The translations under genes and the position numbers were made by a program. Positions 31,677 through 62,409 of a stretch of DNA of 64,000 nt are shown here, piece after piece (the stretch's first letter is position 1; the number at the start of each line of letters is the position of its first letter). This stretch comes from a virus, in the IMG/VR virus record IMGVR_UViG_3300041583_000284, positions 308 to 64,307 of that record; one strand, 5' to 3'. The notes beneath the pieces were generated by a model. That model was given only the letters and a program-made list of their open reading frames with translations, did not search any database and was not told the origin of the DNA.

Positions 31677-31910
31677 TCATGGGGTTCGCCATATACGCAA
31701 CCCCAAAATGTTGTCTTTGAAGGCCCGCCGACAGGCGATACGGATCTCCAGTTTTCTCGCTATGACCTCGGCCTGCTTCTGGCAGGCTTGGGCGTTTATG
31801 CAGGGCACGAACACTGACATCCCGGGATAGAGCTCCTTCCACGGGACCACGATGCGAAGCCCGTCCGGGCATAGGTCAAGTAGGGTCCGAACTGTCATGA
31901 GGTGCCTCAA
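31677..31910 (-). CDS. hypothetical small protein
   Basis: 77-aa last ORF of the minus arm before the terminator. VVPWKELYPGMSVFVPC resembles a recurrent phage small-protein motif (recalled). Confidence 0.4.
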   Translation of the reverse strand: MRHLMTVRTLLDLCPDGLRIVVPWKELYPGMSVFVPCINAQACQKQAEVIARKLEIRIACRRAFKDNILGLRIWRTP

Positions 31911-34785
31911 AATGCATGGGGATCTTCAGCACGTCCACCGGGGGCAGGCTCATCGAGGTGCCTTTGGACAGCCGCACGCGGACTTTCTCAGCCTTGACCT
32001 TCTTCGTCAGCTCATCTTGCACCGATGCATAGTTGATCTGCTGCTCGGACAACCACTCCTTGAACGGACGGATCAACAGGTACAACTGCTTGAGGTCTGT
32101 CTCGTACCGCCCCGCAAAGTCTGTGCTGCGGGGCATCTGCTCTGGCACCGCCATGTGCTCCATCGTGGTCGATGTGCCCCGGGCCCGAAGGTCTATGGTC
32201 GATTTGATCTGCAGGATGCGGCCCCAGTTCTCGTAGACGTACTCGTTGACCAGCGCCACTGCGTCAATCGTGAGTTCCCCGCTCGCCTGCTGGTTCGGGC
32301 GCAGCACCTTGGCGATGACGTAATCGCGGAGCGTCTTGACGTTGTACTGTAGCAGACCAAGGTGGTTGCAGATCACGGCCGCGGCGATAGATGCTGCCAT
32401 GGCGGACGACCAGAAGCGGTTCTCCGGCCCCAAGTTCGCTGTGGTGTCGATCTGGCGCTGGACAGTCTGCACCAGTATCTGGACCTCCTGCAGGTTCTGG
32501 AGGACGTACTGAACGAAGGGCACACCGGCATGACCGTAGTGCAGGAGCAGGTCCCGGCTGAACTTGTCGGTGTCCTCCTTGTCAGACTTCTGCGAGAACA
32601 GCCGGCCAACCTCAATCTCGAGGACCCGCTGGGCTTCTGCTTTTGGCATGGCCTTGGCGCTGGCCACCTTGTCGATCAGGCTGGCATTGCCAGATGTGAT
32701 GAACAGCAGGTTCCAAGGATCGCCGCGGAAGCGCTCCGAGTTGCCGCTGGACGACATCCTGTTGCGCTGCTGGCCCCCGGTCACCTGATAGATGAGGTCT
32801 GATGCGTGGTCGGGGCGGATGTTGGTCACCTCGTCCATGCACACAGGGATGCTGTGCATCACGTCAGCCCGGTTCATGCGAGAGTTGTGGGTGTCCCGCT
32901 CGTCAAGGATCAGCTTCTTCGGGTTGCCCCAGATAGATAGCGCTGCGAGCTTCGCTGTGGTTTTGCCGAACCCAGAATCTTTGGACCACAGGTGGATCAG
33001 GGCAGCGCTTTCCGGCAGGAACTTCATCAGGGCAGAGCCGAACCCCGCGCAGACCACGAGCTGGTGCAGCTCGAAGCCGGGCCGATTGTAGAAGGCCATT
33101 GTCTCCTTCCAGCCCTCCAAGGTGCCTTTGGGGGTGAAAAACTCGGTCAGCCCCCGTGTGCCTGCTGCTGGTGCATTGTGCTCGATACGGTCGCTTTGGA
33201 TGACTTGCTCACCCAGCACGAACCCGTTGAACTCGCCGACCCAGCCAAACTGGCGGTGCGCGTTGTCTGCTTGCGATCTATATTGCAATTCTCTCACCCA
33301 TGTTTGTGTGTACTGCATAAGCGCGTCCACTTCTTTGTTGATAGCCGCCACACCCTGCATAGCGAGGGCGCGTCGAAATTCCTCTTTCGAGGTGACTGCG
33401 TAGAGGGGCACAACGAACGTGCGGGCCTTGTCTTGGGGCAGATGATACCGCATCTCGATAACCTCGCCTTGCTCGGGATCAACCAGCCGCCGGAGCACGT
33501 AGATGTCGTGGAGCCAGACCAGCTTTGAGTCCACCACCCCTTCGGCATCCTTGGTCTCTAGGTATACTCCGCCCCCGATACCGCGCTTGTAGGGGTACGG
33601 CAGAGGAGGAAGCACCATCTTGCCGTCGCCGCGGACTTCCACGACCAGCTTCGTGCCTTCTGGAGCCTCGAACACTTCCACAGGGCCCTCGGCCTGTATC
33701 AGGGAGTTCCCCAAAACAATCGGGGACTTGATTTTGCCCCAGTGCGGGCAGCCTTCGCAGCCGCCGGGGTTCAACTCGTCAAACCGCACACAGAGATAGG
33801 GACCCTTGATCTGGGAGGCCTTGTACGCAGTGTCTTCAGCGTCGTAGTCCGGGTGCCCCGCAGACAGCCAATGGATGGCCTGCTGCTCGGCGCAGTGTGT
33901 CGCGATGGACAGCCCTGCACGCCACAATGGTTCTGGCACAGTTGTCGGGTCTGACAGCATGGCCCCTATCTGTGCGCAGCCGGTGCCCGCAGCGGTCTTT
34001 CGGGCGATCTTCTTGAACGATGCTTCTATGTTGCCCCGCAGGGCATCCATGACAGCGCTGGTGCCTACCACGGCGGCGGCCGCAGCGGAAACCTTCATGG
34101 CAGGGTCTGCAAACAGGCCTGCTGGTGCCGAGACCGCTGCGTGGGGCGCTATGCACGCATTGAACAGCTCAAGAGATGTTGCCTCATGATCCCCGTTGGC
34201 CAGTATCGTGACCGGGTTCGGCGGGGTGTCCTTGTAGTTGTGGGTGCCCGGCATGCGCAGCACCCGTGCAGCATCTGCAGTTGCCGTGGTATCGCAGCAA
34301 AAGCCTAGTGTCTTGCAGGCCGACTTGAACCGTGTCGCCACAGGCAGCCAGCTTGCATAGGGCACCGCAGAAGTGAGCGGCCAGTAGACATGCAGGCCCC
34401 GGCCCGAGTTTACGATGATCGGTTTTGGCAATTTCAGCTTCTTGACGAAGCCGCGCAGAGACAGCAGTGCTTCTCCTTGGTTGGGGTAGTCCTTGCCCGC
34501 CCCGCAGTCCAGATCGAGAAAGAAAGACCCCATCGAAGTAACGTTGCCAGCCTCACGGCTGTCTGCTGTAGCGAAACGCCCCAGCGCGAAATAGGCATCA
34601 CGCTCGTTGCTGTCGAAGTTTAAGGCCGCATGGATAGCGGCCTCTGGGGTATCGTAGAATTTCTGGGTGCGTTTGCCCTTGTCGGGCCCTAGTGCAAGGA
34701 TGCTGTAGTATCCGGCGTCCCCCGTGACACGCCTTACGAAGTCTGTTGTTTCCATAGCCGCCACTCTTTGGATGATGCTCGCCAA
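31876..34785 (-). CDS. bifunctional primase-polymerase / SF3-type helicase
   Basis: 969 aa. FFLDLDCG (DxD) and GRGLHVYW are the prim-pol signature. A CEGCPHWG zinc motif follows. Walker A is DSGFGKTT and Walker B is VCMDEV. Confidence 0.8.
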   Translation of the reverse strand: MASIIQRVAAMETTDFVRRVTGDAGYYSILALGPDKGKRTQKFYDTPEAAIHAALNFDSNERDAYFALGRFATADSREAGNVTSMGSFFLDLDCGAGKDYPNQGEALLSLRGFVKKLKLPKPIIVNSGRGLHVYWPLTSAVPYASWLPVATRFKSACKTLGFCCDTTATADAARVLRMPGTHNYKDTPPNPVTILANGDHEATSLELFNACIAPHAAVSAPAGLFADPAMKVSAAAAAVVGTSAVMDALRGNIEASFKKIARKTAAGTGCAQIGAMLSDPTTVPEPLWRAGLSIATHCAEQQAIHWLSAGHPDYDAEDTAYKASQIKGPYLCVRFDELNPGGCEGCPHWGKIKSPIVLGNSLIQAEGPVEVFEAPEGTKLVVEVRGDGKMVLPPLPYPYKRGIGGGVYLETKDAEGVVDSKLVWLHDIYVLRRLVDPEQGEVIEMRYHLPQDKARTFVVPLYAVTSKEEFRRALAMQGVAAINKEVDALMQYTQTWVRELQYRSQADNAHRQFGWVGEFNGFVLGEQVIQSDRIEHNAPAAGTRGLTEFFTPKGTLEGWKETMAFYNRPGFELHQLVVCAGFGSALMKFLPESAALIHLWSKDSGFGKTTAKLAALSIWGNPKKLILDERDTHNSRMNRADVMHSIPVCMDEVTNIRPDHASDLIYQVTGGQQRNRMSSSGNSERFRGDPWNLLFITSGNASLIDKVASAKAMPKAEAQRVLEIEVGRLFSQKSDKEDTDKFSRDLLLHYGHAGVPFVQYVLQNLQEVQILVQTVQRQIDTTANLGPENRFWSSAMAASIAAAVICNHLGLLQYNVKTLRDYVIAKVLRPNQQASGELTIDAVALVNEYVYENWGRILQIKSTIDLRARGTSTTMEHMAVPEQMPRSTDFAGRYETDLKQLYLLIRPFKEWLSEQQINYASVQDELTKKVKAEKVRVRLSKGTSMSLPPVDVLKIPMHFEAPHDSSDPT

Positions 34786-36491: not shown

Positions 36492-38033
36492 TTAGTCAAG
36501 TATTTCTTTGTAGAGGGTCGTAAGTTTCATGTGGTCACCTTCGCGGGTGTCCAGCATGCTGTACAGGTGTCGCTCCACAGGCGATCCCTGCAGCTGCACC
36601 ACCGTGCACTTATCCGTCTGGCCAGACCGGTGTACCCGGGCGTTGGCCTGTGCGTATATTTCCAAGGACGATGTTGGCCCCCACCAGACCACGACGTTCG
36701 CCGCTGTCAGGGTCACACCATGCGCTGCTGCCTGCGGCTGGATCAGCAAGACCTGCGGGTCTGCTTCACGCTGGAACCGCTGGAAAATCTCCGTGCGCTT
36801 GCTCACAGGCACGTCGCCTCGGATGATGTCCACAGAGTAGCCGTCAGCCCGCATCTTCTCTGCCAAGATGTCGGTGATGTGCGTATAGGGCACGAATACC
36901 AGAACCTTCTTGGACGCCTCGGCTATGACTTCCTTGAGCACCGTGTAGCGGTTCCCGATGTCGAACTCCAACACGTTGCCGTCGTCGTCGTACACGGCGC
37001 CGCAACTAATTTGGATTAATTTATTCATGCCCACCGCAGCGTTCACCGCGGACACGACAGACCCCGAGGTCTCCAGCAGGAGGTTCTTGCGCAACTTCTC
37101 GTAGTAGGTTTTCTGCTGCTTTGTGAGCTCCACGGCGCGCTTGACGTACACCATATCTGGTAGGTCCATGCACTCTTCCTTGGTGAAGCGGATGGCCGGC
37201 TGCAGGGCTTTGTGCACGATCTGGGACGACTCTTTTCGGGGCACCCACTTGAACTGGGTGATCTTAATCATCACCATGTCCTTGAAGGAGCTGAACGTGC
37301 GGGGCACCCCGGTGGGGTTCACGAGCTTCGCCAAGCCGTAGGCGTCCTCTGGGCCCTGCGCGGCAGGTGTGCCAGTCATCATCCACAGCCACGTGTCGGG
37401 GCACGCCTTCAGGATCGCGTTGAGTGTCTTCCACCGCTTGCTCTGGGCGTTCTTATAGGACGTGGCCTCGTCCACGATTATCAGATCGAAGCCGCCGTTG
37501 ATGATCTCGTCTTCCACAATCTCCACGCCGTCGTAGTTGATGATGACGAACTCCGCGCCCTCGGCGAGAATCTTCTTGCGCTTGACGGGGGTGCCGTGGG
37601 CGATGCTCACCGTGCGGTGCATGGCGAAGCTAAAGAGGTCGCCCTTCCATGCCACGTCCATGATTGACACTGGACAGATCACCAGCACCCGGCGGATGCG
37701 TTTGGTTTTCATCAGGAAGTCCGCGGCCCATATGGTGCTGGCTGTCTTGCCTGAACCTGCCTCGGAAAAGCAGAACGCCTTCTTGTGCAGCGTGAGAAAG
37801 GCTGCGGTCTTCTTCTGGTGGGACATAGGCTTGTGCAGCCCGGTCCACTGATAGCGGCCCTCGATAGGAGAGGGGACCTTTATGTTCATGGCGATCAAGC
37901 GCTGCACTGTGGGCATGTCCCACCGCACCAGCACCTCGTGCTCCCCCAAGAGGTGGGCTTTGTCCACCGCCGCCATGATGTGGGCAGGCTCCTTGACTCG
38001 CAAGAGCAAGGCTTTGTTGTCGATGATCTGCAT
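36492..38033 (-). CDS. SNF2-family (SF2) helicase
   Basis: 513 aa. Motif I EAGSGKT, motif II DEATSYKN, motif VI QANARVHRSGQ. Confidence 0.85.
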   Translation of the reverse strand: MQIIDNKALLLRVKEPAHIMAAVDKAHLLGEHEVLVRWDMPTVQRLIAMNIKVPSPIEGRYQWTGLHKPMSHQKKTAAFLTLHKKAFCFSEAGSGKTASTIWAADFLMKTKRIRRVLVICPVSIMDVAWKGDLFSFAMHRTVSIAHGTPVKRKKILAEGAEFVIINYDGVEIVEDEIINGGFDLIIVDEATSYKNAQSKRWKTLNAILKACPDTWLWMMTGTPAAQGPEDAYGLAKLVNPTGVPRTFSSFKDMVMIKITQFKWVPRKESSQIVHKALQPAIRFTKEECMDLPDMVYVKRAVELTKQQKTYYEKLRKNLLLETSGSVVSAVNAAVGMNKLIQISCGAVYDDDGNVLEFDIGNRYTVLKEVIAEASKKVLVFVPYTHITDILAEKMRADGYSVDIIRGDVPVSKRTEIFQRFQREADPQVLLIQPQAAAHGVTLTAANVVVWWGPTSSLEIYAQANARVHRSGQTDKCTVVQLQGSPVERHLYSMLDTREGDHMKLTTLYKEILD

Positions 38034-38365: not shown

Positions 38366-39040
38366 TCATTGTCCATGGTGGGGGCACTCCGTTACAGGGC
38401 AATAGTTGCGGCACAGGCCCGAGGGGCTCGGGTTCCATACGCCAGTCTCGAACGCTCCGAGCAGCTTGGAGTATTTGGCCAGCCACCCCGCCCACATCTG
38501 CTTGCGATCGCGCCTGTGGTAGGTGGCCTTTATCATCTGGTTCGGGACCACAAAGAGCAGGGCCCCGCGCACTTCCTTGATCTCAGGGTACAAGGCGAAG
38601 ATCATGATCGCCATGAGCTCCAGCTGCCCGGTGTCTGCGTACCGGCTGGACTTGCCAGTCTTGTAGTCCACGTAGAAAGCCACGCCCTTCTCACGCTGCA
38701 AGATGATGAGGTCACCGATGCCCCGCACAAAGCAGTCCTTGGCGAAGAAGGTGCAGCCCTCCAGCTTGGTGTTCAGGGCCATCTTGAGTTCGCACAACCG
38801 CTCCCCCTTGATATTCTTCAACGCGTCCAGCACTGGCTTCACGTGGACGAACCGGCCCTCGAGCTCGGTGTCGTCCCGCACGTACTCCTCGCATGCGGTG
38901 TGGAACTCCTCGCCATAGGCTGTCGCCGCGGTCGGAGCACTCGTGTACTCCTTGGTGACGCGGGTGTGGTAGTATTGTTTGGCGCATGTCAGAAAGCCTT
39001 TGAGGCTGCTGAACGACCATGCTGGTAGTTTGTTCATCAA
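38366..39040 (-). CDS. PD-(D/E)XK Cas4/RecB-like exonuclease
   Basis: 224 aa. N-terminal Cys (FLTCAKQYY), core GIGDLIIL...YVDYKTGK...QLELMA, and a C-terminal CRNYCPVTECPHH cluster. Four-Cys Fe-S arrangement as in Cas4-type nucleases. Confidence 0.75.
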   Translation of the reverse strand: MMNKLPAWSFSSLKGFLTCAKQYYHTRVTKEYTSAPTAATAYGEEFHTACEEYVRDDTELEGRFVHVKPVLDALKNIKGERLCELKMALNTKLEGCTFFAKDCFVRGIGDLIILQREKGVAFYVDYKTGKSSRYADTGQLELMAIMIFALYPEIKEVRGALLFVVPNQMIKATYHRRDRKQMWAGWLAKYSKLLGAFETGVWNPSPSGLCRNYCPVTECPHHGQ

Positions 39041-39990
39041 GTGTCTCCATAGTTCTGGGCAGAGCCCGCTTCACAATCGACTGGCAAGCCCTTGGCCCAC
39101 TTAGGCAGCCAGCGCATGCAGTCCTCCACGTAGGCCTTGGCTGTCTCTTCCTCCGCCTTGGGCACGACAATAAGTGCGGAGTCGTGCACGGTCAGGGCGA
39201 TGGGGTATTCTTTTTTGATCTGGAGCATCTGCTCCGCCACGATGATGCGGGCCAGCGCTTGTGTAACATTCTCGATCACAAGAGCGCCGTATACCTTCTT
39301 GCGGCTGGTGCCGCGCCCTGCGTAGTCGAACTGCCACCCTCGCTCGGTCTGGTGCCCTTGCAGGTCGGGGTACTGCACGTAGAGGCCGGAGGGCAGGCGG
39401 ATGCCGAACCGGTCTGGATCCACCCCAAGGACACCGGGCTTGCCGAAATGGTAGGCCGTCTCACGGGTCATGTAGGTCAGCATGTTCCCCGCGTCTTTCC
39501 ACAGCTTGACGATACGTGGATTGGCCGCGCGGTAGATCTTCACGATACGCTGGCACTCGTCCAGCTCGAGGGGGATGCCGTAGGTGCCTTTCATGGTCCC
39601 CTGAAACTTGTCGGGGCCCATGCCAAATCCGCAGCCCAGAACCACACCCTTGCCCACCTGCCGCTGGTCTTTGGTAACGTCGGCTTCCAGCACGCCGTAG
39701 ATGGGGACCGCCATCTTCTTGTAGGGGTCTTCCTTGTCCCGAAAGGTCTGGAGCATGTCCGCCTGCTCCGCGAGCCACGCCAGAACACGCGCTTCGATTT
39801 GGGAGGAGTCGGCCTCGATGATGACATACCCGGGAGGAGCTTCGATGGTGGACTTTATCTTCTTGGCGTTGGGCCCCCGGCTCGGCAGGTTTTGCAGGTT
39901 CACGGAGTCTGAGTTGTGCACGAGCTTGCCATTGGCCACGAACCGGTGCCGGGGCCCGCAATTCTTGATGTCATAGACTGGGACGAGCAT
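39037..39990 (-). CDS. DNA polymerase I family, C-terminal fragment preceded by a 26-aa C-intein-like segment
   Basis: Begins MLVPVYDIKNCGPRHRFVANGKLVHN then SDSVNLQNLPSRG...IIEADSSQIEARVLA (family-A motifs). The extein part is 39040-39912. Confidence 0.85.
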   Translation of the reverse strand: MLVPVYDIKNCGPRHRFVANGKLVHNSDSVNLQNLPSRGPNAKKIKSTIEAPPGYVIIEADSSQIEARVLAWLAEQADMLQTFRDKEDPYKKMAVPIYGVLEADVTKDQRQVGKGVVLGCGFGMGPDKFQGTMKGTYGIPLELDECQRIVKIYRAANPRIVKLWKDAGNMLTYMTRETAYHFGKPGVLGVDPDRFGIRLPSGLYVQYPDLQGHQTERGWQFDYAGRGTSRKKVYGALVIENVTQALARIIVAEQMLQIKKEYPIALTVHDSALIVVPKAEEETAKAYVEDCMRWLPKWAKGLPVDCEAGSAQNYGDT

Positions 39991-40904
39991 ATTTGCGCCT
40001 CTTTGTTATCTCTGTGTTGCTTTGCCCCTGCTTGATCCACATTCGCAGGGTCTCATATGTCAGGTCTGGGCGCTGCGCTTGGAGGGCCCGGATGCGCTCG
40101 CCGGTTATGGACCGCTTGTAAGCCCTCTTGTTGCACGCCTGTTCCTTGCGAGTAGCCCAGCGCAGATTACCCGGCTCGTAGTGCCGGTTATTGTCGATCC
40201 GGTCTATGCTGTGGTCCTTTGAGGGGCGGGGGCCTGTGTTGGCTAGAACCCAAGCAGCTGCGGCGAGGGGCGTCGGGAAACAAAACTGTATCCCGCGCCC
40301 TCCATAGTCAGAGTAGGAAGCACCTGCGGGGTTGGTACAGCGCTGTCTGGCGCCCACCATGATGGACACTAGCGCACGGGCATGCGCAAGGGGGTGCGGG
40401 GTACGGGGGCGCGCGGCGGCTGCATCTGAAGCCTTCTTGGCCAGCTGCGTTCTTTGCGCCGGGGGGAGTGTAGCCATCCGGGCCTTGGAAGCGCAGCTCC
40501 GGCACATCCTCGTCCCTCCCGACAGCAGGTCCGACACGCGAATTGAAGCCCCGCGTCCGCAAGTACACTGACACAAAACCTTAGACTTTGATGCGACCGC
40601 GCCTGTGCACGTTCGGGTCCACTGCGTCAGGATCAGGGCGCCCTCCAGACGTGAGGTAGTGGCCTCCCTGCATCGCGTCTCGTAGGCCAATCTCTCCGGC
40701 GTCCGTAAATACAACATGGTCTTCTGTCCCCCTCACCCCATCCCACTCGATCACTTCAGCAAACCCGCTGAACACGACCCCCTCGTGCTGTACGAAAGCT
40801 ACCCCGTCCCATACGAGGTCGTCGGGCATGACATCTGTTATCTTCTTCTCGTGCATAGTGCCTGAAGTGTCAAGCACTGTGACCGCAGTATCGGCCACTA
40901 AGCA
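39913..40904 (-). mobile_element. split-intein-like element with an embedded free-standing HNH gene (fractured polymerase gene)
   Basis: N-intein-like part 40584-40904, HNH ORF 39971-40717, C-intein-like part 39913-39990 ending VHN|S. The insertion splits the conserved TGRxS / NLQN motif. Confidence 0.6.
39971..40717 (-). CDS. HNH homing endonuclease
   Basis: 248 aa. Cys-rich zinc region (CQCTCGRG...CRSC), YSDYGGRGI, and HSIDRIDNNRHYEPGNLRWATRKEQ (HNH core). Lies between the two polymerase fragments in a different frame. Confidence 0.75.
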   Translation of the reverse strand: MLYLRTPERLAYETRCREATTSRLEGALILTQWTRTCTGAVASKSKVLCQCTCGRGASIRVSDLLSGGTRMCRSCASKARMATLPPAQRTQLAKKASDAAAARPRTPHPLAHARALVSIMVGARQRCTNPAGASYSDYGGRGIQFCFPTPLAAAAWVLANTGPRPSKDHSIDRIDNNRHYEPGNLRWATRKEQACNKRAYKRSITGERIRALQAQRPDLTYETLRMWIKQGQSNTEITKRRKYARPSL

Positions 40905-41870
40905 TCCAGACCAGCGCCCTGTGTGTGCCCCATAGTACCGAAGCGGCACCGGGAACATACCCCGGTCAGCGATCCCGATGAACCGCGCGGTGCGCGTCTC
41001 TTCGAGGGTGGACTTGTTCCCAAGCCGCGCTGCAACGAGGGCCTGCACGTCAGGGTCGTCGTGCTCAAGCAGCGCCTTGAACTCCTCGTCGGTCTTGGCG
41101 AAGGCCCACGCTTCCTTGCCGGTGGTGGCGCTGACCTTGCGTGGGGGGTCCACGCCCATGTCCTGCAACAACCCTGCAAACTTATCGTTGGACATCAGGT
41201 CCTTCTTGTCCGCCCCCACGCGGTCCAGCAACGCCTGCTTGGCCCTGACAGTCTCGATCAGGTGGGCTTCCAGCTTGGGCTTGTTCAGTTGCAGCTGGGG
41301 TTCTGTGAACATGCGCAACGTCATGTCAATCAGCTGGAGTTCCTTTTTCGGGAACCCCCCGGGGATAGAGCCCATGAAGATGTTGAAGAGCTGATAGCAC
41401 AGGTCAGTGTCGTGCTTGCAGTATTTGCCGTAGGCTGCCAGCTCGGTAGGGGTGAAGTCTGCCCGCCGCATCCCCATCGCCCGCAGCACCTCGTCCCCCT
41501 TGGGCGGCAGGTTGTACCGCTTGGCGAGGGCTGCGAGGCCGTGCGATGCGTCGGGGCCATGAATGGCCCGTGACATAGACAACGTGTCCAGCCACAACTT
41601 AGGCTTGATGCCTAAGCGCCACGCAAGGATCGCCCCGTCGAACAGGGTGTTGTGCGCGAGGATCGCAGCGTTTGACCAGTCGATGGTGTGCAGCGCCGCG
41701 TATATCTCGAGGATGTCGCCCGAGAGCCACTTGGCTTTCTTGCCATTCTTCTTGACGGACAGCCCGATAAGTTCAAACCGGGGGTCCCGCACGTATTCTT
41801 CCGTGGTGATCTTGGATAGGCTGTACTCCTTGGAGTAAAACGTCTCCGCGTCTATCGTATAAAGATCCAT
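40581..41870 (-). CDS. DNA polymerase I family, N-terminal (3-5 exonuclease plus N-terminal polymerase) fragment ending in a 107-aa N-intein-like segment
   Basis: The extein (40905-41870) ends ...YYGAHTGRWSG. It is followed by CLVADTAVTVLD... (intein block-A-like Cys-Leu-x-x-Asp-Thr) up to the stop at 40581. Confidence 0.85.
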   Translation of the reverse strand: MDLYTIDAETFYSKEYSLSKITTEEYVRDPRFELIGLSVKKNGKKAKWLSGDILEIYAALHTIDWSNAAILAHNTLFDGAILAWRLGIKPKLWLDTLSMSRAIHGPDASHGLAALAKRYNLPPKGDEVLRAMGMRRADFTPTELAAYGKYCKHDTDLCYQLFNIFMGSIPGGFPKKELQLIDMTLRMFTEPQLQLNKPKLEAHLIETVRAKQALLDRVGADKKDLMSNDKFAGLLQDMGVDPPRKVSATTGKEAWAFAKTDEEFKALLEHDDPDVQALVAARLGNKSTLEETRTARFIGIADRGMFPVPLRYYGAHTGRWSGCLVADTAVTVLDTSGTMHEKKITDVMPDDLVWDGVAFVQHEGVVFSGFAEVIEWDGVRGTEDHVVFTDAGEIGLRDAMQGGHYLTSGGRPDPDAVDPNVHRRGRIKV

Positions 41871-41916
41871 TAGTTATTCCTCCTAATCCAGTCTGCAAAC
41901 AACTTCTAGTGAGCTG

Positions 41917-42399
41917 CTAGGGCACCTTTCTCCAGTAGCTGCCGAGGGCGCTTGCACGCTTCGACAAGATTAGATCAGCGCGCCTCCCCGCAGCCCACAG
42001 CGTTATGCCATGGCCGGGGGACTTGCCGACAGAGCCGTCGGGCCGCTCGAACTTCGGCTTGCCCAGCACCAACATCATCCCTTTGGCTCTCTTGGCGGCG
42101 TCTTGCCACCACGGGGCGCTTGTGCGGTCGGGCGTCAGTGCGATCCCGTTACCGTGCAGGAAGAACTTGTCTAGCCACGGCGAAAGCCCGTTGCGCCCCC
42201 CAAAGGGCGGGTTCATCCAAACAAAACCTTGCCATTGCGCGGTCAGGCTGTCCGAACTGATCCATCCTTTGCAGGGTACGTGTTGCGGCCCTTCCAGTGG
42301 GGCTGCAACGTCGAGGTCAAAAGTTACGCCCAAGGCGTCAAAGATATATTTTGGGGTATACCAATCGTCTGTTGCGCCGGGGGCTTCCCACGCGCTCAT
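41917..42399 (-). CDS. DNA N6-adenine methyltransferase (phage Dam-type)
   Basis: 160 aa. DDWYTPKYIFDALGVTFDLDVAAP and the WMNPPFG catalytic motif. Confidence 0.8.
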   Translation of the reverse strand: MSAWEAPGATDDWYTPKYIFDALGVTFDLDVAAPLEGPQHVPCKGWISSDSLTAQWQGFVWMNPPFGGRNGLSPWLDKFFLHGNGIALTPDRTSAPWWQDAAKRAKGMMLVLGKPKFERPDGSVGKSPGHGITLWAAGRRADLILSKRASALGSYWRKVP

Positions 42400-42548
42400 T
42401 GGTCACCCTCGTCGGCGTTCTTCTCCCGGCGCGCGAGAGCTTCGCCAACATCCCGATGGATGCGCGCGGCCATCAAAGCCGCGGCACCAACCAAGAAAAA
42501 CAGCACGAGCCACAGGATTGAGGTGGCTACGTAGCCCAAGCACGCCAT
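42396..42548 (-). CDS. small membrane protein
   Basis: 50-aa ORF read by hand (MACLGYVATSILWLVLFFLVGAAALMAARIHRDVGEALARREKNADEGDQ). Coupled at both ends (TGATG, ATGA). Confidence 0.4.
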   Translation of the reverse strand: MACLGYVATSILWLVLFFLVGAAALMAARIHRDVGEALARREKNADEGDQ

Positions 42549-43081
42549 CACAGGAACTCGCCATGCTTGGCACTGATCGCGATCAAGTGCTCTGCCTGCG
42601 AGCGGGCGTCGTCCAGCGCGTTGTGGTGGGTGCCGCTGCGAGCCATCTTCACGTCAGGATACATACCCTTAACAGTGCGGTAGCACTTGTCTTTCCGGAA
42701 CTCCCACATCGGCACGCCGCATCGCCTCCCCGACTCGCGCGTCAATACGTTGTCAAAAGGTGCCCCTTTGCCCCATACGCCTTTTAGGCTGTCACCGTAG
42801 GCGCATACAAACTGCATAAAGTCGCGCAAAGCCACGTCAAGTCCAATGGCTTCGTCTTGGGCTTCGGTCAGTGCGTTGCGAGCACTGTCTCCTTGCCGCA
42901 GCCACCACATGACAGTGCTGGGGTCAATAACGGCACCTGAGCGCACGGCGCTGTGAAGCGACACAACGCGGTAGAACGTCTCGTCAGTCACGCCCATGGC
43001 GTTAAACGCCACGGCACCAATAGCCACGATTGGTGCATCCGGGCGAGTGCCCATGGTCTCTAGGTCAAGCATGATGTGCAT
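42548..43081 (-). CDS. DEDDh 3-5 exonuclease
   Basis: 177 aa. IMLDLETMG (Exo I) and HNALDDARSQAE (Exo III with His). Confidence 0.8.
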   Translation of the reverse strand: MHIMLDLETMGTRPDAPIVAIGAVAFNAMGVTDETFYRVVSLHSAVRSGAVIDPSTVMWWLRQGDSARNALTEAQDEAIGLDVALRDFMQFVCAYGDSLKGVWGKGAPFDNVLTRESGRRCGVPMWEFRKDKCYRTVKGMYPDVKMARSGTHHNALDDARSQAEHLIAISAKHGEFL

Positions 43082-43377
43082 CAGTTTGTCTCCTCAATAA
43101 GCAGATAACAGGCTGCGAGGTAGACGATTGCCCCAAGCACCTCGGCCTGCGCGCGGGCGGGTTCCTTACGGCCCAGCATGCCAGAGGCTTCCTGTGTTTT
43201 CTTCATGGCTTGGCCGAGGGAGTACCCGGGCCCCACCATACGTCCGATCTCCATGATGGGTTGGCGGTCAAAGGGCTTGCCGTTGGCGTGGCGCTCCTTG
43301 CCTTTGCCTGCGGCCGCTTGGTTGTAGGCCGCGCCCAAGACGCGGCCCAGCCCTACGTAGTCGGGATTCTCAATCAT
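43081..43377 (-). CDS. dATP/dGTP pyrophosphohydrolase-like (MazG-related) small protein
   Basis: 98 aa. AAGKGKERHANGKPFDRQPIMEIGR...GQAMKKTQEA matches a recalled phage nucleotide pyrophosphohydrolase N-terminal pattern. Confidence 0.45.
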   Translation of the reverse strand: MIENPDYVGLGRVLGAAYNQAAAGKGKERHANGKPFDRQPIMEIGRMVGPGYSLGQAMKKTQEASGMLGRKEPARAQAEVLGAIVYLAACYLLIEETN

Positions 43378-43401
43378 GTGCTTTCTCCAGTGGGTTGTTG
43401 T

Positions 43402-43593
43402 TTAAGACGGTGTATCACGCTGCGCAGCGGTGCGCAAGGCAATCATAGCGTAGGCGTTGGTAAAGAATGGTCTCAGACCTCGTTTAGGGTCTTTTGCTAT
43501 CCAATGGGCAGCGGTCAACTGCGCCGGGGACATCTTATTCAGAGTCGCCAAGAGCTGTGTTTGCTTTGGCGGCTTGTGCTTGCGTCGGGTCAT
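43402..43593 (-). CDS. hypothetical protein
   Basis: 63-aa ORF in the minus-strand operon. Confidence 0.4.
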   Translation of the reverse strand: MTRRKHKPPKQTQLLATLNKMSPAQLTAAHWIAKDPKRGLRPFFTNAYAMIALRTAAQRDTPS

Positions 43594-43886
43594 GGCTTGG
43601 CCTCCTGTGCGGGGGATAAGGCACGTATCTTGAGCGTTATAACTGACGCCTCATCTTCGCGTATTGGTGCGCTGGAATGGGCTGACATGAAGGCCGTGCG
43701 TGATCTGGCAAGACTAACATCGGAGGCATCTTTAAGCCCCTCCGCATACCCATCTGCCTTTGCCGATGCCAGCGCGGCCTCGGCAACGGCAAGGCTGGCT
43801 GATAATGCCGCTATTTGGTCTATGTATGGCTGGCATACTCGCCGGGTTTTCGGTGGGTATCCCATCGGTAATATTTCGTCGGTCAT
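43590..43886 (-). CDS. hypothetical protein
   Basis: 98 aa, ATGA-coupled. Confidence 0.45.
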   Translation of the reverse strand: MTDEILPMGYPPKTRRVCQPYIDQIAALSASLAVAEAALASAKADGYAEGLKDASDVSLARSRTAFMSAHSSAPIREDEASVITLKIRALSPAQEAKP

Positions 43887-47921: not shown

Positions 47922-47942
47922 ACTTAGTCGGGATGACTAAGT
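47922..47942 (-). repeat. junction palindrome P2
   Basis: ACTTAGTC GGGAT GACTAAGT. Abuts the GR1 stop. 21 nt containing CCAACCAAGGAGAG precede the ATG at 47900. Confidence 0.9.
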
Positions 47943-48175
47943 TAGTTGTCGCCGTCGCCGGAGCCGTCGCCGGAGCCGTAGCCATCGCCGTAGCCGTTGC
48001 CGAAGCCGTAGCCGAAGCCGTTGCCGAAGCCATCGCCGTTGCCGTTGCCGAAGCCGTAGCCGAAGCCGTTGCCGAAGCCGTTGCCGAAGCCGTAGCCGTC
48101 GCCGTCGCCGTAGCCGTAGCCGTCGCCGTAGCGGGACCCCGCCCACACCAGCGGGCGCAGGAACGTCCAGATCAT
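47942..48175 (-). CDS. Gly-rich micro-protein GR1 (MIWTFLRPLVWAGSRYG leader plus Gly-X repeat core)
   Basis: 77 aa. Its ATG overlaps the GR2 stop (ATGA). Its TAA stop abuts palindrome P2. Confidence 0.7.
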   Translation of the reverse strand: MIWTFLRPLVWAGSRYGDGYGYGDGDGYGFGNGFGNGFGYGFGNGNGDGFGNGFGYGFGNGYGDGYGSGDGSGDGDN

Positions 48176-48348
48176 TGTTCACCTCTGTTCCCATTGCCGT
48201 AGCCGTAGCCGTCGCCGTCGCCGTCGCCGTCGCCATCGCCGTAGCCGTAGCCGTCGCCGTAGCCGTTGCCGTTGCCGTTGCCGTTGCCGTGGCCGTGGCC
48301 GTAGCGGGACTTCGACCACACCAGCGGCCGCAGGAAAGTCCAGATCAT
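48172..48348 (-). CDS. Gly-rich micro-protein GR2
   Basis: 58 aa, MIWTFLRPLVWSKSRYGHGHGNGNGNGNGYGDGYGYGDGDGDGDGDGYGYGNGNRGEQ. The ATG at 48348 overlaps the stop of the 278-aa ORF (ATGA). The 3-prime end encodes the GAGGTGA RBS for GR1. Confidence 0.7.
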   Translation of the reverse strand: MIWTFLRPLVWSKSRYGHGHGNGNGNGNGYGDGYGYGDGDGDGDGDGYGYGNGNRGEQ

Positions 48349-49224: not shown

Positions 49225-49365
49225 TCAGTTGCCGTAGCCGTAGCCGAAGCCGTAGCCGTCGCCGAAGCCGTAGCCGAAGCCGTAGCCGTAGCCGCCGCCG
49301 TCGCCGTAGCCGTAGCCGTAGCGGAACCGGGACCACACCAGTGGGCGTAGAAAGCCCCAGATCAC
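49225..49365 (-). CDS. Gly-rich micro-protein GR3
   Basis: 46 aa, (V/M)IWGFLRPLVWSRFRYGYGYGDGGGYGYGFGYGFGDGYGFGYGYGN. The GTG start overlaps the vWA gene stop (GTGA). The TGA stop abuts palindrome P3. Confidence 0.6.
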   Translation of the reverse strand: MIWGFLRPLVWSRFRYGYGYGDGGGYGYGFGYGFGDGYGFGYGYGN

Positions 49366-50643: not shown

Positions 50644-50664
50644 ACTTAGTCGGGATGACTAAGT
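50644..50664 (-). repeat. junction palindrome P5
   Basis: ACTTAGTC GGGAT GACTAAGT, after the GR4 stop. Confidence 0.9.
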
Positions 50665-50888
50665 CAGTTGCTGTTGCCGTAGCCGAGGCCGAGGCCGTAG
50701 CCGTCGCCGCTACCCCATCCGTTGCCGCTGCCCCATCCGTTGCCGTAGCCGCGGCCGTAGCCGGGGCCGTGGCCGTGGCCGTAGCCGTCGCCGTAGCCGG
50801 GGCCGTGGCCGTCGCCGTAGCCGTAGCCGTCGCCGTCGCCGTAGCGGGACTTCGACCACACCAGCGGGCGCAGGAACGTCCAGATCAT
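50664..50888 (-). CDS. Gly-rich micro-protein GR4
   Basis: 74 aa with the MIWTFLRPLVWSKSRYG leader. ATGA overlap with GR5. The TGA stop abuts palindrome P5. Confidence 0.7.
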   Translation of the reverse strand: MIWTFLRPLVWSKSRYGDGDGYGYGDGHGPGYGDGYGHGHGPGYGRGYGNGWGSGNGWGSGDGYGLGLGYGNSN

Positions 50889-51061
50889 TGTTCACCTCCG
50901 TTCCCATTGCCGTAGCCGCAGCCGTCGCCGTCGCCGTCGCCGTCGCCATCGCCGTAGCCGTAGCCGTCGCCGTAGCCGTTGCCGTTGCCGTTGCCGTTGC
51001 CGTGGCCGTGGCCGTAGCGGGACTTCGACCATACCAGCGGGCGGGCAAAGAGCCAGATCAT
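50885..51061 (-). CDS. Gly-rich micro-protein GR5
   Basis: 58-aa ORF read by hand, below the track length cutoff: MIWLFARPLVWSKSRYGHGHGNGNGNGNGYGDGYGYGDGDGDGDGDGCGYGNGNGGEQ. The ATG overlaps the stop of the upstream 252-aa ORF (ATGA). Near-duplicate of GR2. Confidence 0.65.
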   Translation of the reverse strand: MIWLFARPLVWSKSRYGHGHGNGNGNGNGYGDGYGYGDGDGDGDGDGCGYGNGNGGEQ

Positions 51062-51839: not shown

Positions 51840-51860
51840 ACTTAGTCGGGATGACTAAGT
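51840..51860 (-). repeat. junction palindrome P6
   Basis: ACTTAGTC GGGAT GACTAAGT, after the GR6 stop. Confidence 0.9.
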
Positions 51861-51952
51861 CAGTTGTGGTTGTAGCGGCCATAGCCGAGGCCGAGGCCGT
51901 AGCCGTAGCGGGATTTCGACCACACCAGCGGGCGGGCGAAGAGCCAGATCAT
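51860..51952 (-). CDS. Gly-rich micro-protein GR6 (shortest member)
   Basis: 30 aa, MIWLFARPLVWSKSRYGYGLGLGYGRYNHN. The ATG overlaps the HNH gene stop (ATGA). The TGA stop abuts palindrome P6. Confidence 0.55.
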   Translation of the reverse strand: MIWLFARPLVWSKSRYGYGLGLGYGRYNHN

Positions 51953-52584
51953 GTCACTGATCCTTTCTTTGGCACGAGTAGTGCTAGGCCCCGCACACCC
52001 TTGCGCCACCGGCTGTCCACTGTTGAGTACGGCAAGCCGTATTCTCGGACAGCATCTGTCAGGGCCAATCGGCGGTCGGGCAGGTAGACCCACCGGGTCT
52101 GGCGACGGTTGTTCAGTTGCTCAGTCATGGTGACCCAGCGCACGTTACCGGGCTCGTAGCCCCGCTCGTTATCAATCCGGTCCAGTGTACTGTGCCGATC
52201 TTGGGTAGGTGCGGGACCGATGTGGGCGTAGAACAAGGCAAAGTCCGCCTCCCACGCGGGGAGCATGGCTATGCCGCGCCCCCCATAGTTGTGGTATTTA
52301 GGGTTCTTTGGGTTGTTGCATCGCTGCTTTGCAGCAATCCACGCAACCCATTCTTTGCCGTGGGCCAGACCATGCCTAGCCCTACGGCGATTGCTTTCGG
52401 CGACGCCGCACTTTACCGAACAGGAGATAGCCCCTGTCCGCAAGTGGCTGCCGGTCTTTATGCAGATGTTCCCACAGTCGCATTGGCATTCCCACCGAGC
52501 TTGCCCGTCGTGGCTACTGTCCACTTGTCTAGTTACAAGTAACTTTCCTTGGCGTATTCCAGCCCACTGAACTAGGTTGCCCAC
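51949..52584 (-). CDS. HNH homing endonuclease (paralog of 39971-40717)
   Basis: 211 aa, GTG start. CQCDCGN...CSVKCG zinc region, YHNYGGRGI, STLDRIDNERGYEPGNVRWVTMTEQ. Same architecture as the polymerase-associated HNH. Confidence 0.75.
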   Translation of the reverse strand: MGNLVQWAGIRQGKLLVTRQVDSSHDGQARWECQCDCGNICIKTGSHLRTGAISCSVKCGVAESNRRRARHGLAHGKEWVAWIAAKQRCNNPKNPKYHNYGGRGIAMLPAWEADFALFYAHIGPAPTQDRHSTLDRIDNERGYEPGNVRWVTMTEQLNNRRQTRWVYLPDRRLALTDAVREYGLPYSTVDSRWRKGVRGLALLVPKKGSVT

Positions 52585-53722: not shown

Positions 53723-53743
53723 ACTTAGTCGGGATGACTAAGT
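53723..53743 (-). repeat. junction palindrome P7
   Basis: ACTTAGTC GGGAT GACTAAGT, after the GR7 stop. Confidence 0.9.
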
Positions 53744-53934
53744 TAGTTGTCGCCGTAGCCATCGCCGTAGCCGTTGCCGAAGCCGAAGCCGTAGCCGTAG
53801 CCGTCGCCGTTGCCGTTGCCGTAGCCGAAGCCGTGGCCGTAGCCGTTGCCGAAGCCGTTGCCGAAGCCGTAGCCGTCGCCGTCGCCGTAGCGGGACCCCG
53901 CCCACACCAGCGGGCGGAGAAAGCCCCAGATCAT
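53743..53934 (-). CDS. Gly-rich micro-protein GR7
   Basis: 63 aa with the MIWGFLRPLVWAGSRYG leader. ATGA overlap with GR8. The TAA stop abuts palindrome P7. Confidence 0.7.
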   Translation of the reverse strand: MIWGFLRPLVWAGSRYGDGDGYGFGNGFGNGYGHGFGYGNGNGDGYGYGFGFGNGYGDGYGDN

Positions 53935-54173
53935 TGGCCACCTCCGTTCCCGTTTCCATAGCCGTCGCCGTCGCCGAAGCCGTAGCCGTAGCCATCGCCG
54001 TTGCCGAAGCCATCGCCGTTGCCGTTGCCGAAGCCGTAGCCGAAGCCGTTGCCGAAGCCGTTGCCGAAGCCGTAGCCGTCGCCGGAGCCGTCGCCGGAGC
54101 CGTTGCCGAAGCCGTAGCCGCTACCGTAGCGGAACTTCGACCACACCAGCGGGCGGAGAAAGCCCCAGATCAT
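53931..54173 (-). CDS. Gly-rich micro-protein GR8
   Basis: 80 aa with the MIWGFLRPLVWSKFRYG leader. The ATG at 54173 overlaps the upstream TAA by 1 nt (TAATG). Ends GGGQ, encoding the GGAGGTGG RBS for GR7. Confidence 0.65.
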   Translation of the reverse strand: MIWGFLRPLVWSKFRYGSGYGFGNGSGDGSGDGYGFGNGFGNGFGYGFGNGNGDGFGNGDGYGYGFGDGDGYGNGNGGGQ

Positions 54174-54474: not shown

Positions 54475-54495
54475 ACTTAGTCGGAATGACTAAGT
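54475..54495 (-). repeat. junction palindrome P8
   Basis: ACTTAGTC GGAAT GACTAAGT, after the GR9 stop. Confidence 0.9.
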
Positions 54496-54740
54496 CAGTT
54501 GTAGCCGTCGCCGTAGCCGTCGCCGTCACCGTTGCCATAGTTGTAGCCGTCGCCAGTGCCGTCACCGTTGCCATAGTTGTAGCCGTCGCCGTCACCGTTG
54601 CCATAGTTGTAGCCGTCGCCAGTGCCGTCACCGTTGCCATAGTTGTAGCCGTAGCCGTCGCCGTCACCGTTGCCATAGCCGTCGCCATTGCCGAAGCTGG
54701 ACTTCGACCACACCAGCGGGCGGAGAAAGCCCCAGATCAT
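54495..54740 (-). CDS. Gly-rich micro-protein GR9
   Basis: 81 aa with the MIWGFLRPLVWSKSSFG leader and a GNGDG(Y/T)G(D)GYNY-type core. The ATG overlaps the upstream stop (ATGA). The TGA stop abuts palindrome P8. Confidence 0.7.
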   Translation of the reverse strand: MIWGFLRPLVWSKSSFGNGDGYGNGDGDGYGYNYGNGDGTGDGYNYGNGDGDGYNYGNGDGTGDGYNYGNGDGDGYGDGYN

Positions 54741-62003: not shown

Positions 62004-62409
62004 TGTGATCCCGTCCCCCTCGAAAGTTGTGCCTGATACCATATGGGTGTGCGGCTGTGGCTGCTGCAGCTTCGCACTGCTTGACGGAGGCCGTACCACG
62101 TGCAGTGCGTGCGGGGGTGACACTGCTGGCTCAGCCGCAGGAGGCTGGTTCGTGCCACCATCACCGGGCTTGGTATGGGGAGGGAATACCCCTGTAACAC
62201 ACGTCACGGGCAACGGGTCGCCTGAGTTCGCCCGGCGGCGGATGACGCGCTTCGCAAACGAGGAGGATGTGGCGGGAATCATCATCATCCGGGACTCAGG
62301 CCAGCTCCACACATGGACCGCTGTGGACACCAACGAGGGCGTGCAGTGGTTGCAGGAGCGGATAAAGGACGCTGCGGGACTAATCACGGAAGACGCCGTA
62401 GATGAGTGA
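61993..62409 (+). CDS. zinc-ribbon protein
   Basis: The ATG at 61993 overlaps the 3-prime end of the small-subunit gene. CGCGCCSF...CSACGG. 138 aa. Confidence 0.45.
   Translation: MMSDVIPSPSKVVPDTIWVCGCGCCSFALLDGGRTTCSACGGDTAGSAAGGWFVPPSPGLVWGGNTPVTHVTGNGSPEFARRRMTRFANEEDVAGIIIIRDSGQLHTWTAVDTNEGVQWLQERIKDAAGLITEDAVDE

Follow-up and report, generated by a model that had tools for sequence, protein, structure and literature searches.

The stretch of DNA analysed here (the window) comprises 64,000 nucleotides (nt) of the IMG/VR virus record IMGVR_UViG_3300041583_000284, positions 308 to 64,307 of that record, and represents essentially the whole of a ~64-kb phage genome. In its minus-strand replication module the family-A DNA polymerase gene (polA) is found as two open reading frames (ORFs), ORF N and ORF C, separated by an ORF for an HNH-like endonuclease (Table 1). 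ORF N runs as polymerase to ...YYGAHTGRWSG and continues for a further 107 amino acids (aa) to its stop codon, and ORF C starts with MLVPVYDIKNCGPRHRFVANGKLVHN before the polymerase sequence resumes at SDSVNLQNLP. ORF N, the HNH ORF and ORF C occupy three different frames (f, f+1 and f+2, respectively), and the HNH ORF overlaps ORF N by 137 nt and ORF C by 20 nt. An initial annotation of this DNA had described an intein block A-like segment behind the first polymerase half and a segment resembling blocks F and G, with a terminal His-Asn, ahead of the second; both are present exactly as claimed, as is the complete HNH ORF reported between the halves, in another frame and overlapping both. The analysis described below makes it probable that this is a genuine fractured polA, interrupted by a 992-bp mobile element that combines a class-1 split intein with the gene of a free-standing HNH-like homing endonuclease, and that the polymerase is restored by protein trans-splicing while the element spreads by homing.

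Both flanks of the insert encode recognizable parts of the polymerase. The segment upstream of the break (the N-extein) matches Pfam DNA_pol_A_exo1 (E = 1.3e-6) and covers positions 670-977 of the phrog_17 (DNA polymerase) profile, and the downstream segment (the C-extein) matches Pfam DNA_pol_A (E = 2.4e-29) with its polymerase motifs intact. The phrog_17 profile crosses the break without a gap, position 977 corresponding to residue 322 of ORF N and position 978 to residue 28 of ORF C; a gapless polymerase is therefore obtained once both extra segments are removed, and the predicted spliced product is 322 + 291 = 613 aa long. The insertion site is located between the Gly and the next codon of the TGRWSG/(S)DSVNLQN motif (a slash within a sequence marks the break here and below). 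Since the length of the insert, 992 bp, is of the form 3n+2, the two polA ORFs fall in different frames. An empty version of the site is provided by a related IMG/VR genome (IMGVR_UViG_3300037606_000144; L001), which shows 92-97% DNA identity to the window over the replication module. Its uninterrupted polA reads ...YYGAHTGRWSG-Q-DSVNLQNLP..., defines the 992-bp insert and is 93% identical to the window gene in the N-extein (aa) and 97% in the C-extein (nt). Four of the nine flanking nt at the junction differ (TCTGGA/TCA in the window versus TCCGGGCAA in L001); no co-conversion tract relative to L001 extends beyond these ~9 nt, the flanks being otherwise 93-98% identical. The earlier statement that removing both segments restores the polymerase motif is thus borne out by the continuity of the profile and by an existing allele.

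The two extra segments carry the signatures of an intein. In the N-intein, block A contains Cys1 in CLVADTAV and block B reads T60-E-D-H63; in alignments of 13 family sequences (A1) and of 54 (A2), neither Cys1 nor H63 varies, and T60 is either invariant or conserved at 90% or more. The C-intein ends in VYDI..CGPRHRFVANGKLVHN/S, where the terminal Asn is invariant and the penultimate residue is His or Ser. The N-half is 38% identical to the intein of the APSE-1 P45 DNA polymerase. When the two halves were fused and modelled with AlphaFold2 (AF2) on the 54-row alignment, which was built from substrings of database proteins, the mean predicted local distance difference test score (pLDDT) was 90.7 and the predicted template modelling score 0.83; a single-sequence AlphaFold prediction of the fusion gave a pLDDT of 33. 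The per-residue pLDDT exceeds 90 for residues 1-90, falls below 50 only for residues 93-100, in the tail of ORF N, and is ~96 for the C-intein, which completes the HINT fold in the model. The folded part of the N-intein spans approximately residues 1-92, and the tail (residues 93-107) is poorly conserved and disordered in the AF2 model; the functional N-intein stops at about residue 90 and the tail is read-through of the nuclease gene. The top 37 Foldseek matches of the model in the PDB are all inteins (probability 1.00, template modelling scores of 0.5-0.72), with gp41-1 first, followed by DnaB, RecA, NrdJ-1 and Npu DnaE; Hedgehog HINT domains rank after the inteins. A search of PDB sequences with a family profile built from the fused halves likewise returned inteins in 13 of 13 matches, with blocks B, F and G aligned. 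These include the Spl DnaX mini-intein (the best match, E = 0.0033), to whose C-terminus the C-intein aligns, Mtu RecA, the N-half of Neq PolB (NEQ068), Ssp DnaB and NrdJ-1. The family profile was needed, as a single-sequence phmmer search of the fused intein against the PDB gave no match. On the basis of the predicted HINT fold, the conserved motifs, the homology to APSE-1, the intein-only profile matches in the PDB and the precise empty-site allele, the coding halves of the insert are assigned to a class-1 intein.

The arrangement recurs well beyond this genome. Scans of IMG/VR with ORF N and the HNH ORF yielded 98 loci, which were dissected by tblastn. The order N (f), HNH (f+1), C (f+2) was found in L002/L085, L003, L081-L083, L086-L093 and L094; this three-frame layout is present in 11 non-redundant IMG/VR contigs, the window included, with the three ORFs intact in each. 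Identities to the window are 47-65% for the polymerase's N-terminal part, 44-59% for the HNH protein and 73-96% for the C-intein, which reaches 88-96% in orthologous loci, and the layout recurs far beyond chance. A Logan contig (SRR13696611) is 100% identical to positions 38857-43796 of the window (4,940 bp). A blastn search of 50,697 phage records produced only stretches of 100-220 nt with ~71-76% identity, in phages of Rhizobium and Pseudomonas, and these weak, short matches indicate that no cultured phage is a close relative.

Among the 80 closest polA relatives in IMG/VR the insert is present in only two. The residue that follows the break (+1) is Ser in every insert-bearing allele except that of L093, where it is Cys, and is nearly always Asp, Glu or Gln in the ~75 empty alleles. 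Such a sporadic distribution together with a changed +1 codon is the trace that would be expected of a homing element with co-conversion of its flanks, which is suggestive and no proof. Two empty alleles, L039 and L043, carry a Ser at +1 (GG/SESINLQN and GG/SDKINLQN); this Ser may be the footprint of precise intein loss or may mark a pre-adapted site.

The ORF between the polymerase halves matches phrog_374 (E = 9e-33) and phrog_3377 (E = 5e-27), both named 'HNH endonuclease'. Its product possesses a zinc-ribbon-like CxCxC...CxxC pattern in the N-terminal region and the core motif YGGRGI...DRIDNNRHYEPGNLRWAT..EQ..N, which across the loci takes the form S-[IL]-D-R-I-D-N-N-x-x-Y-E-P-G-N-L-R-W-A-T with conserved Asn residues. 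A search of the protein against PDB sequences returned no meaningful match. The gene begins inside the intein, in the +1 frame relative to it: its start codon, ATG at 40715-40717, takes its first two letters from the block-B His codon (CAT, 40716-40718) and its third from the G of the following Val codon, so that the last 45 codons of the N-intein ORF overlap the first 45 codons of the HNH ORF. The block-B His codon is CAT in all 11 loci, and CAT makes up 35% of the His codons in these ORFs. Across the loci, third codon positions read in the intein frame show a mean pairwise diversity of 0.65 in the N-extein and 0.59 in intein codons 1-62, which drops to 0.26 in codons 63-80 and 0.36 in codons 81-96 (Mann-Whitney p = 8e-8 for the drop past the HNH ATG). 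The third position is invariant in 2 of the 62 codons that precede this ATG and in 12 of the 34 that follow (Fisher p = 5e-5). The onset of the drop coincides exactly with the ATG, and past codon ~81 the HNH frame accounts for the variability pattern better than the intein frame does. RNA structure was considered as a source of the synonymous constraint and rejected, the consensus structure amounting to -4.3 kcal/mol with almost no covariation and a single-sequence z-score of +0.83. In addition, residues 25-45 of the HNH protein, which are encoded in the overlap, align to a free-standing paralogue elsewhere in the window. Given the invariant CAT, the drop in diversity at the ATG, the lack of RNA structure and the alignment to the paralogue, the 137-nt overlap is genuine dual coding and not incidental.

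The dual-coded start is missed by automatic annotation. In the Logan record (L102/L103), the gene call (L102 2484-3020) starts the HNH gene at an internal Met, which cuts through the CxCxC...CxxC region and overlooks the conserved ATG inside the N-intein ORF. This explains why an exact look-up of the 248-aa product found no record, and database entries for this nuclease family are probably systematically too short.

Two further genes of this type were observed in the window. The free-standing HNH paralogue (35% identity, E = 6e-27) sits between a MoxR-like ATPase gene and another gene, away from any intein; a gene like it may have invaded the mini-intein, and it is a possible source of the nuclease gene. 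The structural module holds one more putative homing endonuclease, the third in the window (phrog_559 'HNH endonuclease', E = 7.7e-95; Pfam DUF723), downstream of the portal gene.

The C-terminal fragment has translation signals of its own. A GGAG, AGGA or GGGG motif lies 5-9 nt upstream of its conserved ATG (M-L-V-P-V-Y-D-I) in 11 of 11 loci, and this Shine-Dalgarno sequence is embedded in the 3' end of the HNH gene. The length of the overlap between the end of the HNH gene and ORF C, 20 nt in the window, varies in other loci, as do the position of the stop codon of ORF N and the sequence of its tail. On the coding strand no promoter-like or terminator-like site was found within the locus, and thus a single transcript with three initiations is the simplest reading.

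The intein belongs to a large family. A word-indexed protein search with the N-intein found only eight short fragments; a full HMMER search of 1.84 billion representative proteins (E <= 1e-3) found homologues in 1,043. Among the best 150 of these, 75 are split-like, ending no more than 45 aa after the N-intein with no C-intein motif (mostly polA N-fragments of ~400-480 aa), 51 are contiguous with an in-frame C-intein motif and 24 are ambiguous. Contiguous mini-inteins of ~135-140 aa that lack an HNH gene occur at the same TGRxxG/S site (P0009 and P0028). In another group (APSE-1 P45/P46, L095, L098 and the second insert of L003) the intein is contiguous and no stop interrupts the polymerase frame where it passes through an out-of-frame HNH gene, and an HNH in frame with the intein was seen in one fragment only (P0084). 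The intein-HNH pairing occurs at no fewer than four polA sites (TGRxSG/S, motif A, motif B and the APSE site), in split and contiguous forms, and outside polA as well, the helicase of P0137 being one case. In L003 (7283-8056), L094 (6109-7140) and P0009 (residues ~560-870), polA motif B (..VLG/CG[FY].MG) holds a second intein of this family. It is contiguous, with a nested out-of-frame HNH gene, and so one polymerase gene can hold split and unsplit members of the family. As the empty site, the mini-intein, the contiguous form with nested HNH and the split form have all been found, every stage that the invasion model of Dassa et al. (2009) postulates is represented in one family.

These features suggest how the element might operate. 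The three ORFs would be co-transcribed and translated from three separate starts, the HNH protein in the +1 frame from the ATG created by the block-B His codon, and the C-fragment from its own ATG, served by the Shine-Dalgarno sequence that the 3' end of the HNH gene contains. The N-intein (107 aa) and the C-intein (26 aa) would then associate into the HINT fold, and trans-splicing through Cys1, the T-x-x-H motif, the terminal His-Asn and Ser+1 would join the 322-aa and 291-aa fragments into the 613-aa polymerase. During co-infection, the putative HNH enzyme may cut insert-free alleles, repair may copy the element in, and the flanking +1 codon may be co-converted to Ser in the process. As for the origin, invasion of a mini-intein by a free-standing HNH gene appears likeliest.

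Several observations weigh against this interpretation. Pfam scans of the isolated halves and of the fusion gave no intein match, and NCBIfam TIGR01443 (intein_Cterm) scored the C-intein at 15.2 bits, just under its cut-off of 15.6. The comparison with intein profiles that the initial annotation had suggested therefore gave a divided answer: the curated Pfam and NCBIfam hidden Markov models (HMMs) remained below threshold, and the family's own profile found only inteins in the PDB. Since the standard intein HMMs miss the halves, a check by these HMMs would have led to the wrong conclusion that no intein is present. The AF2 model describes an artificial fusion of two halves. The C-intein, at 26 aa, does not have the extra beta-strand of longer C-inteins, which makes efficient association of the halves an assumption. 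Among natural split inteins, whose C-inteins measure for instance ~36 aa (Npu DnaE), ~37 aa (gp41-1) and ~30 aa (Neq PolB), a length of 26 aa stands at the short end. With respect to the nuclease, Pfam HNH_3 matches the ORF at E = 0.074 and 13.1 bits against a cut-off of 24.8, and the first His of the canonical HNH motif reads Arg (DRIDNN), which makes the catalytic assignment of the putative HNH nuclease uncertain; the label HNH is taken from names in PHROG and RefSeq. The identical Logan contig may derive from the same source as the window, faulty gene calling may account for some among the 75 split-like proteins, and both splicing and nuclease activity are inferred from sequence.

The main rival is that the polymerase fragments work without covalent ligation and that the intein halves do no more than hold them together as a non-covalent dimerisation module; phage Aeh1 offers a parallel in its split NrdA, which assembles unspliced. 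Phage replication genes that are split and yet work unspliced have been documented (PMC2677866; cf. PMC3045599), and the unusual shortness of the C-intein would suit such a role. We nevertheless regard this as improbable, because Cys1, T60, H63, the penultimate His/Ser, the terminal Asn and the +1 Ser/Cys are almost invariant among 13-54 homologues that are saturated at synonymous sites, and because the +1 Ser/Cys is tied to intein-bearing alleles, as is expected for splicing chemistry and not for docking. Decay of the element is more doubtful still. A broken intein would have inactivated polA, the phage would rely on another polymerase and the ORFs would be pseudogene remnants, in keeping with models of the homing cycle that predict degeneration after fixation (bioRxiv 10.1101/2025.01.02.630785). 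Such remnants are hard to reconcile with three intact ORFs in 11 divergent loci, with intein diversities of 0.22 and 0.20 at codon positions 1 and 2 against 0.59 at position 3, and with intact polymerase motifs; moreover, no other polymerase gene is present among the ORFs examined in the window.

Two programmed +1 ribosomal frameshifts that read the N-intein, HNH and C-intein segments as one conventional HNH intein would account for the one-directional progression f, f+1, f+2 and its conserved order. This is very unlikely, as the constraint on the HNH frame starts exactly at a conserved ATG and not at a slippery site, the end of ORF N differs among loci, ORF C comes with a conserved Shine-Dalgarno sequence and ATG of its own, and conserved RNA structure is absent. 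The initial annotation had itself raised two alternatives. A formerly contiguous HNH-containing intein is not favoured, given that the relatives are either mini-inteins devoid of HNH or carry it out of frame, with the fragment P0084 as the sole in-frame case. A frameshift introduced by sequencing is excluded by the retention of the layout at 47-65% polymerase identity and by the conservation of the HNH start and of the C-fragment Shine-Dalgarno sequence and ATG. Together with the possibility of a group I intron bearing an HNH ORF, a sequencing or assembly frameshift in a contiguous intein has nothing but prior plausibility in its favour and is the least credible of the explanations, since the same three-frame layout is seen in independent metagenomes, the Logan contig is identical, an Rfam scan of the region returned no family, group I introns included, and the flanking segments are conserved as protein with a predicted HINT fold.

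Within the preferred reading of a split intein with a homing endonuclease, it is conceivable, if only tentatively, that intein and HNH gene make up a single mobile module whose parts are obligately coupled and that the HNH enzyme may recognise the DNA of HNH-less mini-inteins instead of the polymerase site. With the start and the first ~45 codons of the nuclease lying inside the splicing domain, neither part could easily be lost or exchanged alone. Targeting of mini-intein DNA, if true, would account for the recurrence of this intein-HNH pairing at no fewer than four polA sites and outside polA. In addition, nuclease expression could be held down by the location of its start within an ORF that is itself translated.

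The arrangement of a split intein plus a free-standing homing endonuclease, which the initial annotation had likened to fractured genes known from metagenomes, is upheld by the fold, the motifs, the homology to APSE-1 and the empty-site allele. Dassa et al. (2009; PMC2677866) described fractured gp41, NrdA, NrdJ and IMPDH genes in Global Ocean Sampling (GOS) metagenomes, in which split inteins accompany free-standing GIY-YIG or Vsr-like endonuclease genes. In these loci the endonuclease is preceded by 27-51 nt of non-coding spacer, in which a hairpin is often present, and the endonuclease gene overlaps the C-intein ORF by 6-69 bp; the authors noted that HNH genes 'could fracture genes' and observed none. 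The window shares with these loci the same-strand order of N-extein plus N-intein, endonuclease gene and C-intein plus C-extein, the overlap of the 3' end of the endonuclease gene with the C-intein ORF (20 nt here), the phage or metagenomic source and the fit to the mini-intein-invasion model, and gp41-1 is the top structural match. It differs in having an HNH-like endonuclease, a family-A DNA polymerase as host, a 137-nt dual-coding overlap with no conserved hairpin in place of the spacer, and a shorter C-intein (26 aa). Spacer and endonuclease type are descriptive traits of the 2009 loci; a mismatch in them marks a variant and excludes nothing.

Phage APSE-1 (NC_000935) carries an intein of the homologous family in a phage family-A polymerase, with a C-half (VYD..CGPR.RF...VHN) common to both, and a homologous gene, P46 (named HNH endonuclease in RefSeq), in the +1 frame relative to the intein. 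There, however, the P45 polymerase frame stays open through the HNH gene, so that the intein is contiguous with a non-homologous linker; the insertion site is YGGKS/C, near motif C, and P46, at 141 aa, is the shorter of the two HNH genes and lies clear of the splicing domain. The APSE polymerase intein has been reported to be differentially lost (PMC7313666). Contiguous inteins of actinobacteriophages, for which an origin by invasion was proposed, likewise contain free-standing endonuclease genes nested out of frame or antisense (bioRxiv 10.1101/2025.01.02.630785). Their nucleases are EndoVII-like, LAGLIDADG or Vsr-like, with HNH in frame only, whereas here the intein is split and the out-of-frame nuclease is of the HNH type. 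Cyanobacterial DnaE and Nanoarchaeum equitans PolB also divide a replicative polymerase between two genes with half an intein on each, but at separate loci without an intervening endonuclease and in polymerase families C and B, respectively, as opposed to family A. In Aeh1 nrdA/mobE an HNH-type homing endonuclease gene fractures an essential gene of replication or nucleotide metabolism; no intein is present there and the fragments assemble non-covalently. A literature search, with subscription journals outside its coverage, turned up no account of a fractured polA of the HNH type, nor one of the dual-coded start.

The genes that surround polA and the remaining features with coordinates are included in Table 1. 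Apart from the element, nine paralogous small ORFs of 30-81 aa were observed on the minus strand between 47942 and 54740. They share the N-terminus MIW[TGL]F[LA]RPLVW[SA][KG]SRYG and continue as long Gly-X dipeptide repeats (X = Y, F, D, N or H). A conserved element of ~64 nt with the inverted repeat CTTAGTCATCCCGACTAAG is present in six copies among these ORFs, just downstream of several of them. Both the small ORFs and the ~64-nt element are also found in L001.

Table 1. Features of the fractured polA locus and of the wider genome (window coordinates)
Feature	Coordinates	Strand	Remarks
ORF N (polA N-part + N-intein)	40581-41870	minus	429 aa; TAA stop
HNH-like ORF	39971-40717	minus	248 aa; between the two polA ORFs
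ORF C (C-intein + polA catalytic part)	39037-39990	minus	317 aa
polA N-extein	40905-41870	minus	322 aa; 3'-5' exonuclease domain and N-terminal polymerase part; ends ...YYGAHTGRWSG
N-intein	40581-40904	minus	107 aa + TAA; begins CLVADTAVTVLD
Dual-coding overlap, N-intein ORF/HNH ORF	40581-40717	minus	137 nt
Shine-Dalgarno-like AAGAGG	39998-40003	minus	7 nt upstream of the C-fragment ATG
C-intein	39913-39990	minus	26 aa; M-LVPVYDIKNCGPRHRFVANGKLVHN; blocks F and G, terminal His-Asn
polA C-extein	39037-39912	minus	291 aa + stop; starts at +1 Ser (SDSVNLQNLP...); motifs A, B and C
Whole mobile insert	39913-40904	minus	992 bp
SNF2 helicase	36492-38033		replication module
Cas4-like exonuclease	38366-39040		replication module
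Dam methylase	41917-42399		replication module
Rv2179c-like exonuclease	42548-43081		replication module
Primase-helicase	31876-34785		
Large terminase	62402-63946		
Portal	508-2955		followed by tail fibres and ejection proteins
Free-standing HNH paralogue	51949-52584	minus	211 aa
Third putative homing endonuclease	6629-8164	plus	511 aa
Paralogous small ORFs (first five)	47942-48175, 48172-48348, 49225-49365, 50664-50888, 50885-51061	minus	
Paralogous small ORFs (last four)	51860-51952, 53743-53934, 53931-54173, 54495-54740	minus	

Relative to known fractured genes, the new elements here are the HNH-type nuclease, the family-A polymerase host and the overlapping nuclease start, and the arrangement is common in metagenomes. 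The locus adds an HNH-type case, foreseen and not found in PMC2677866, to the fractured-gene model of the origin of split inteins, and the conserved dual coding of a splicing domain and a nuclease gene provides a clean natural case of overlapping genes in a mobile element. It also illustrates how gene callers shorten the nuclease, 178 aa being called where 248 aa are supported. What makes the locus of interest to specialists is the kind of nuclease, the polymerase as host gene, the dual-coded start, the marked shortness of the C-intein and how abundant the family is. At least 75 clusters at 50% identity look split; if splicing is true, the family would constitute a large and diverse source of natural Cys1/Ser+1 split inteins with a 26-aa C-half, which may be of interest to protein engineers.

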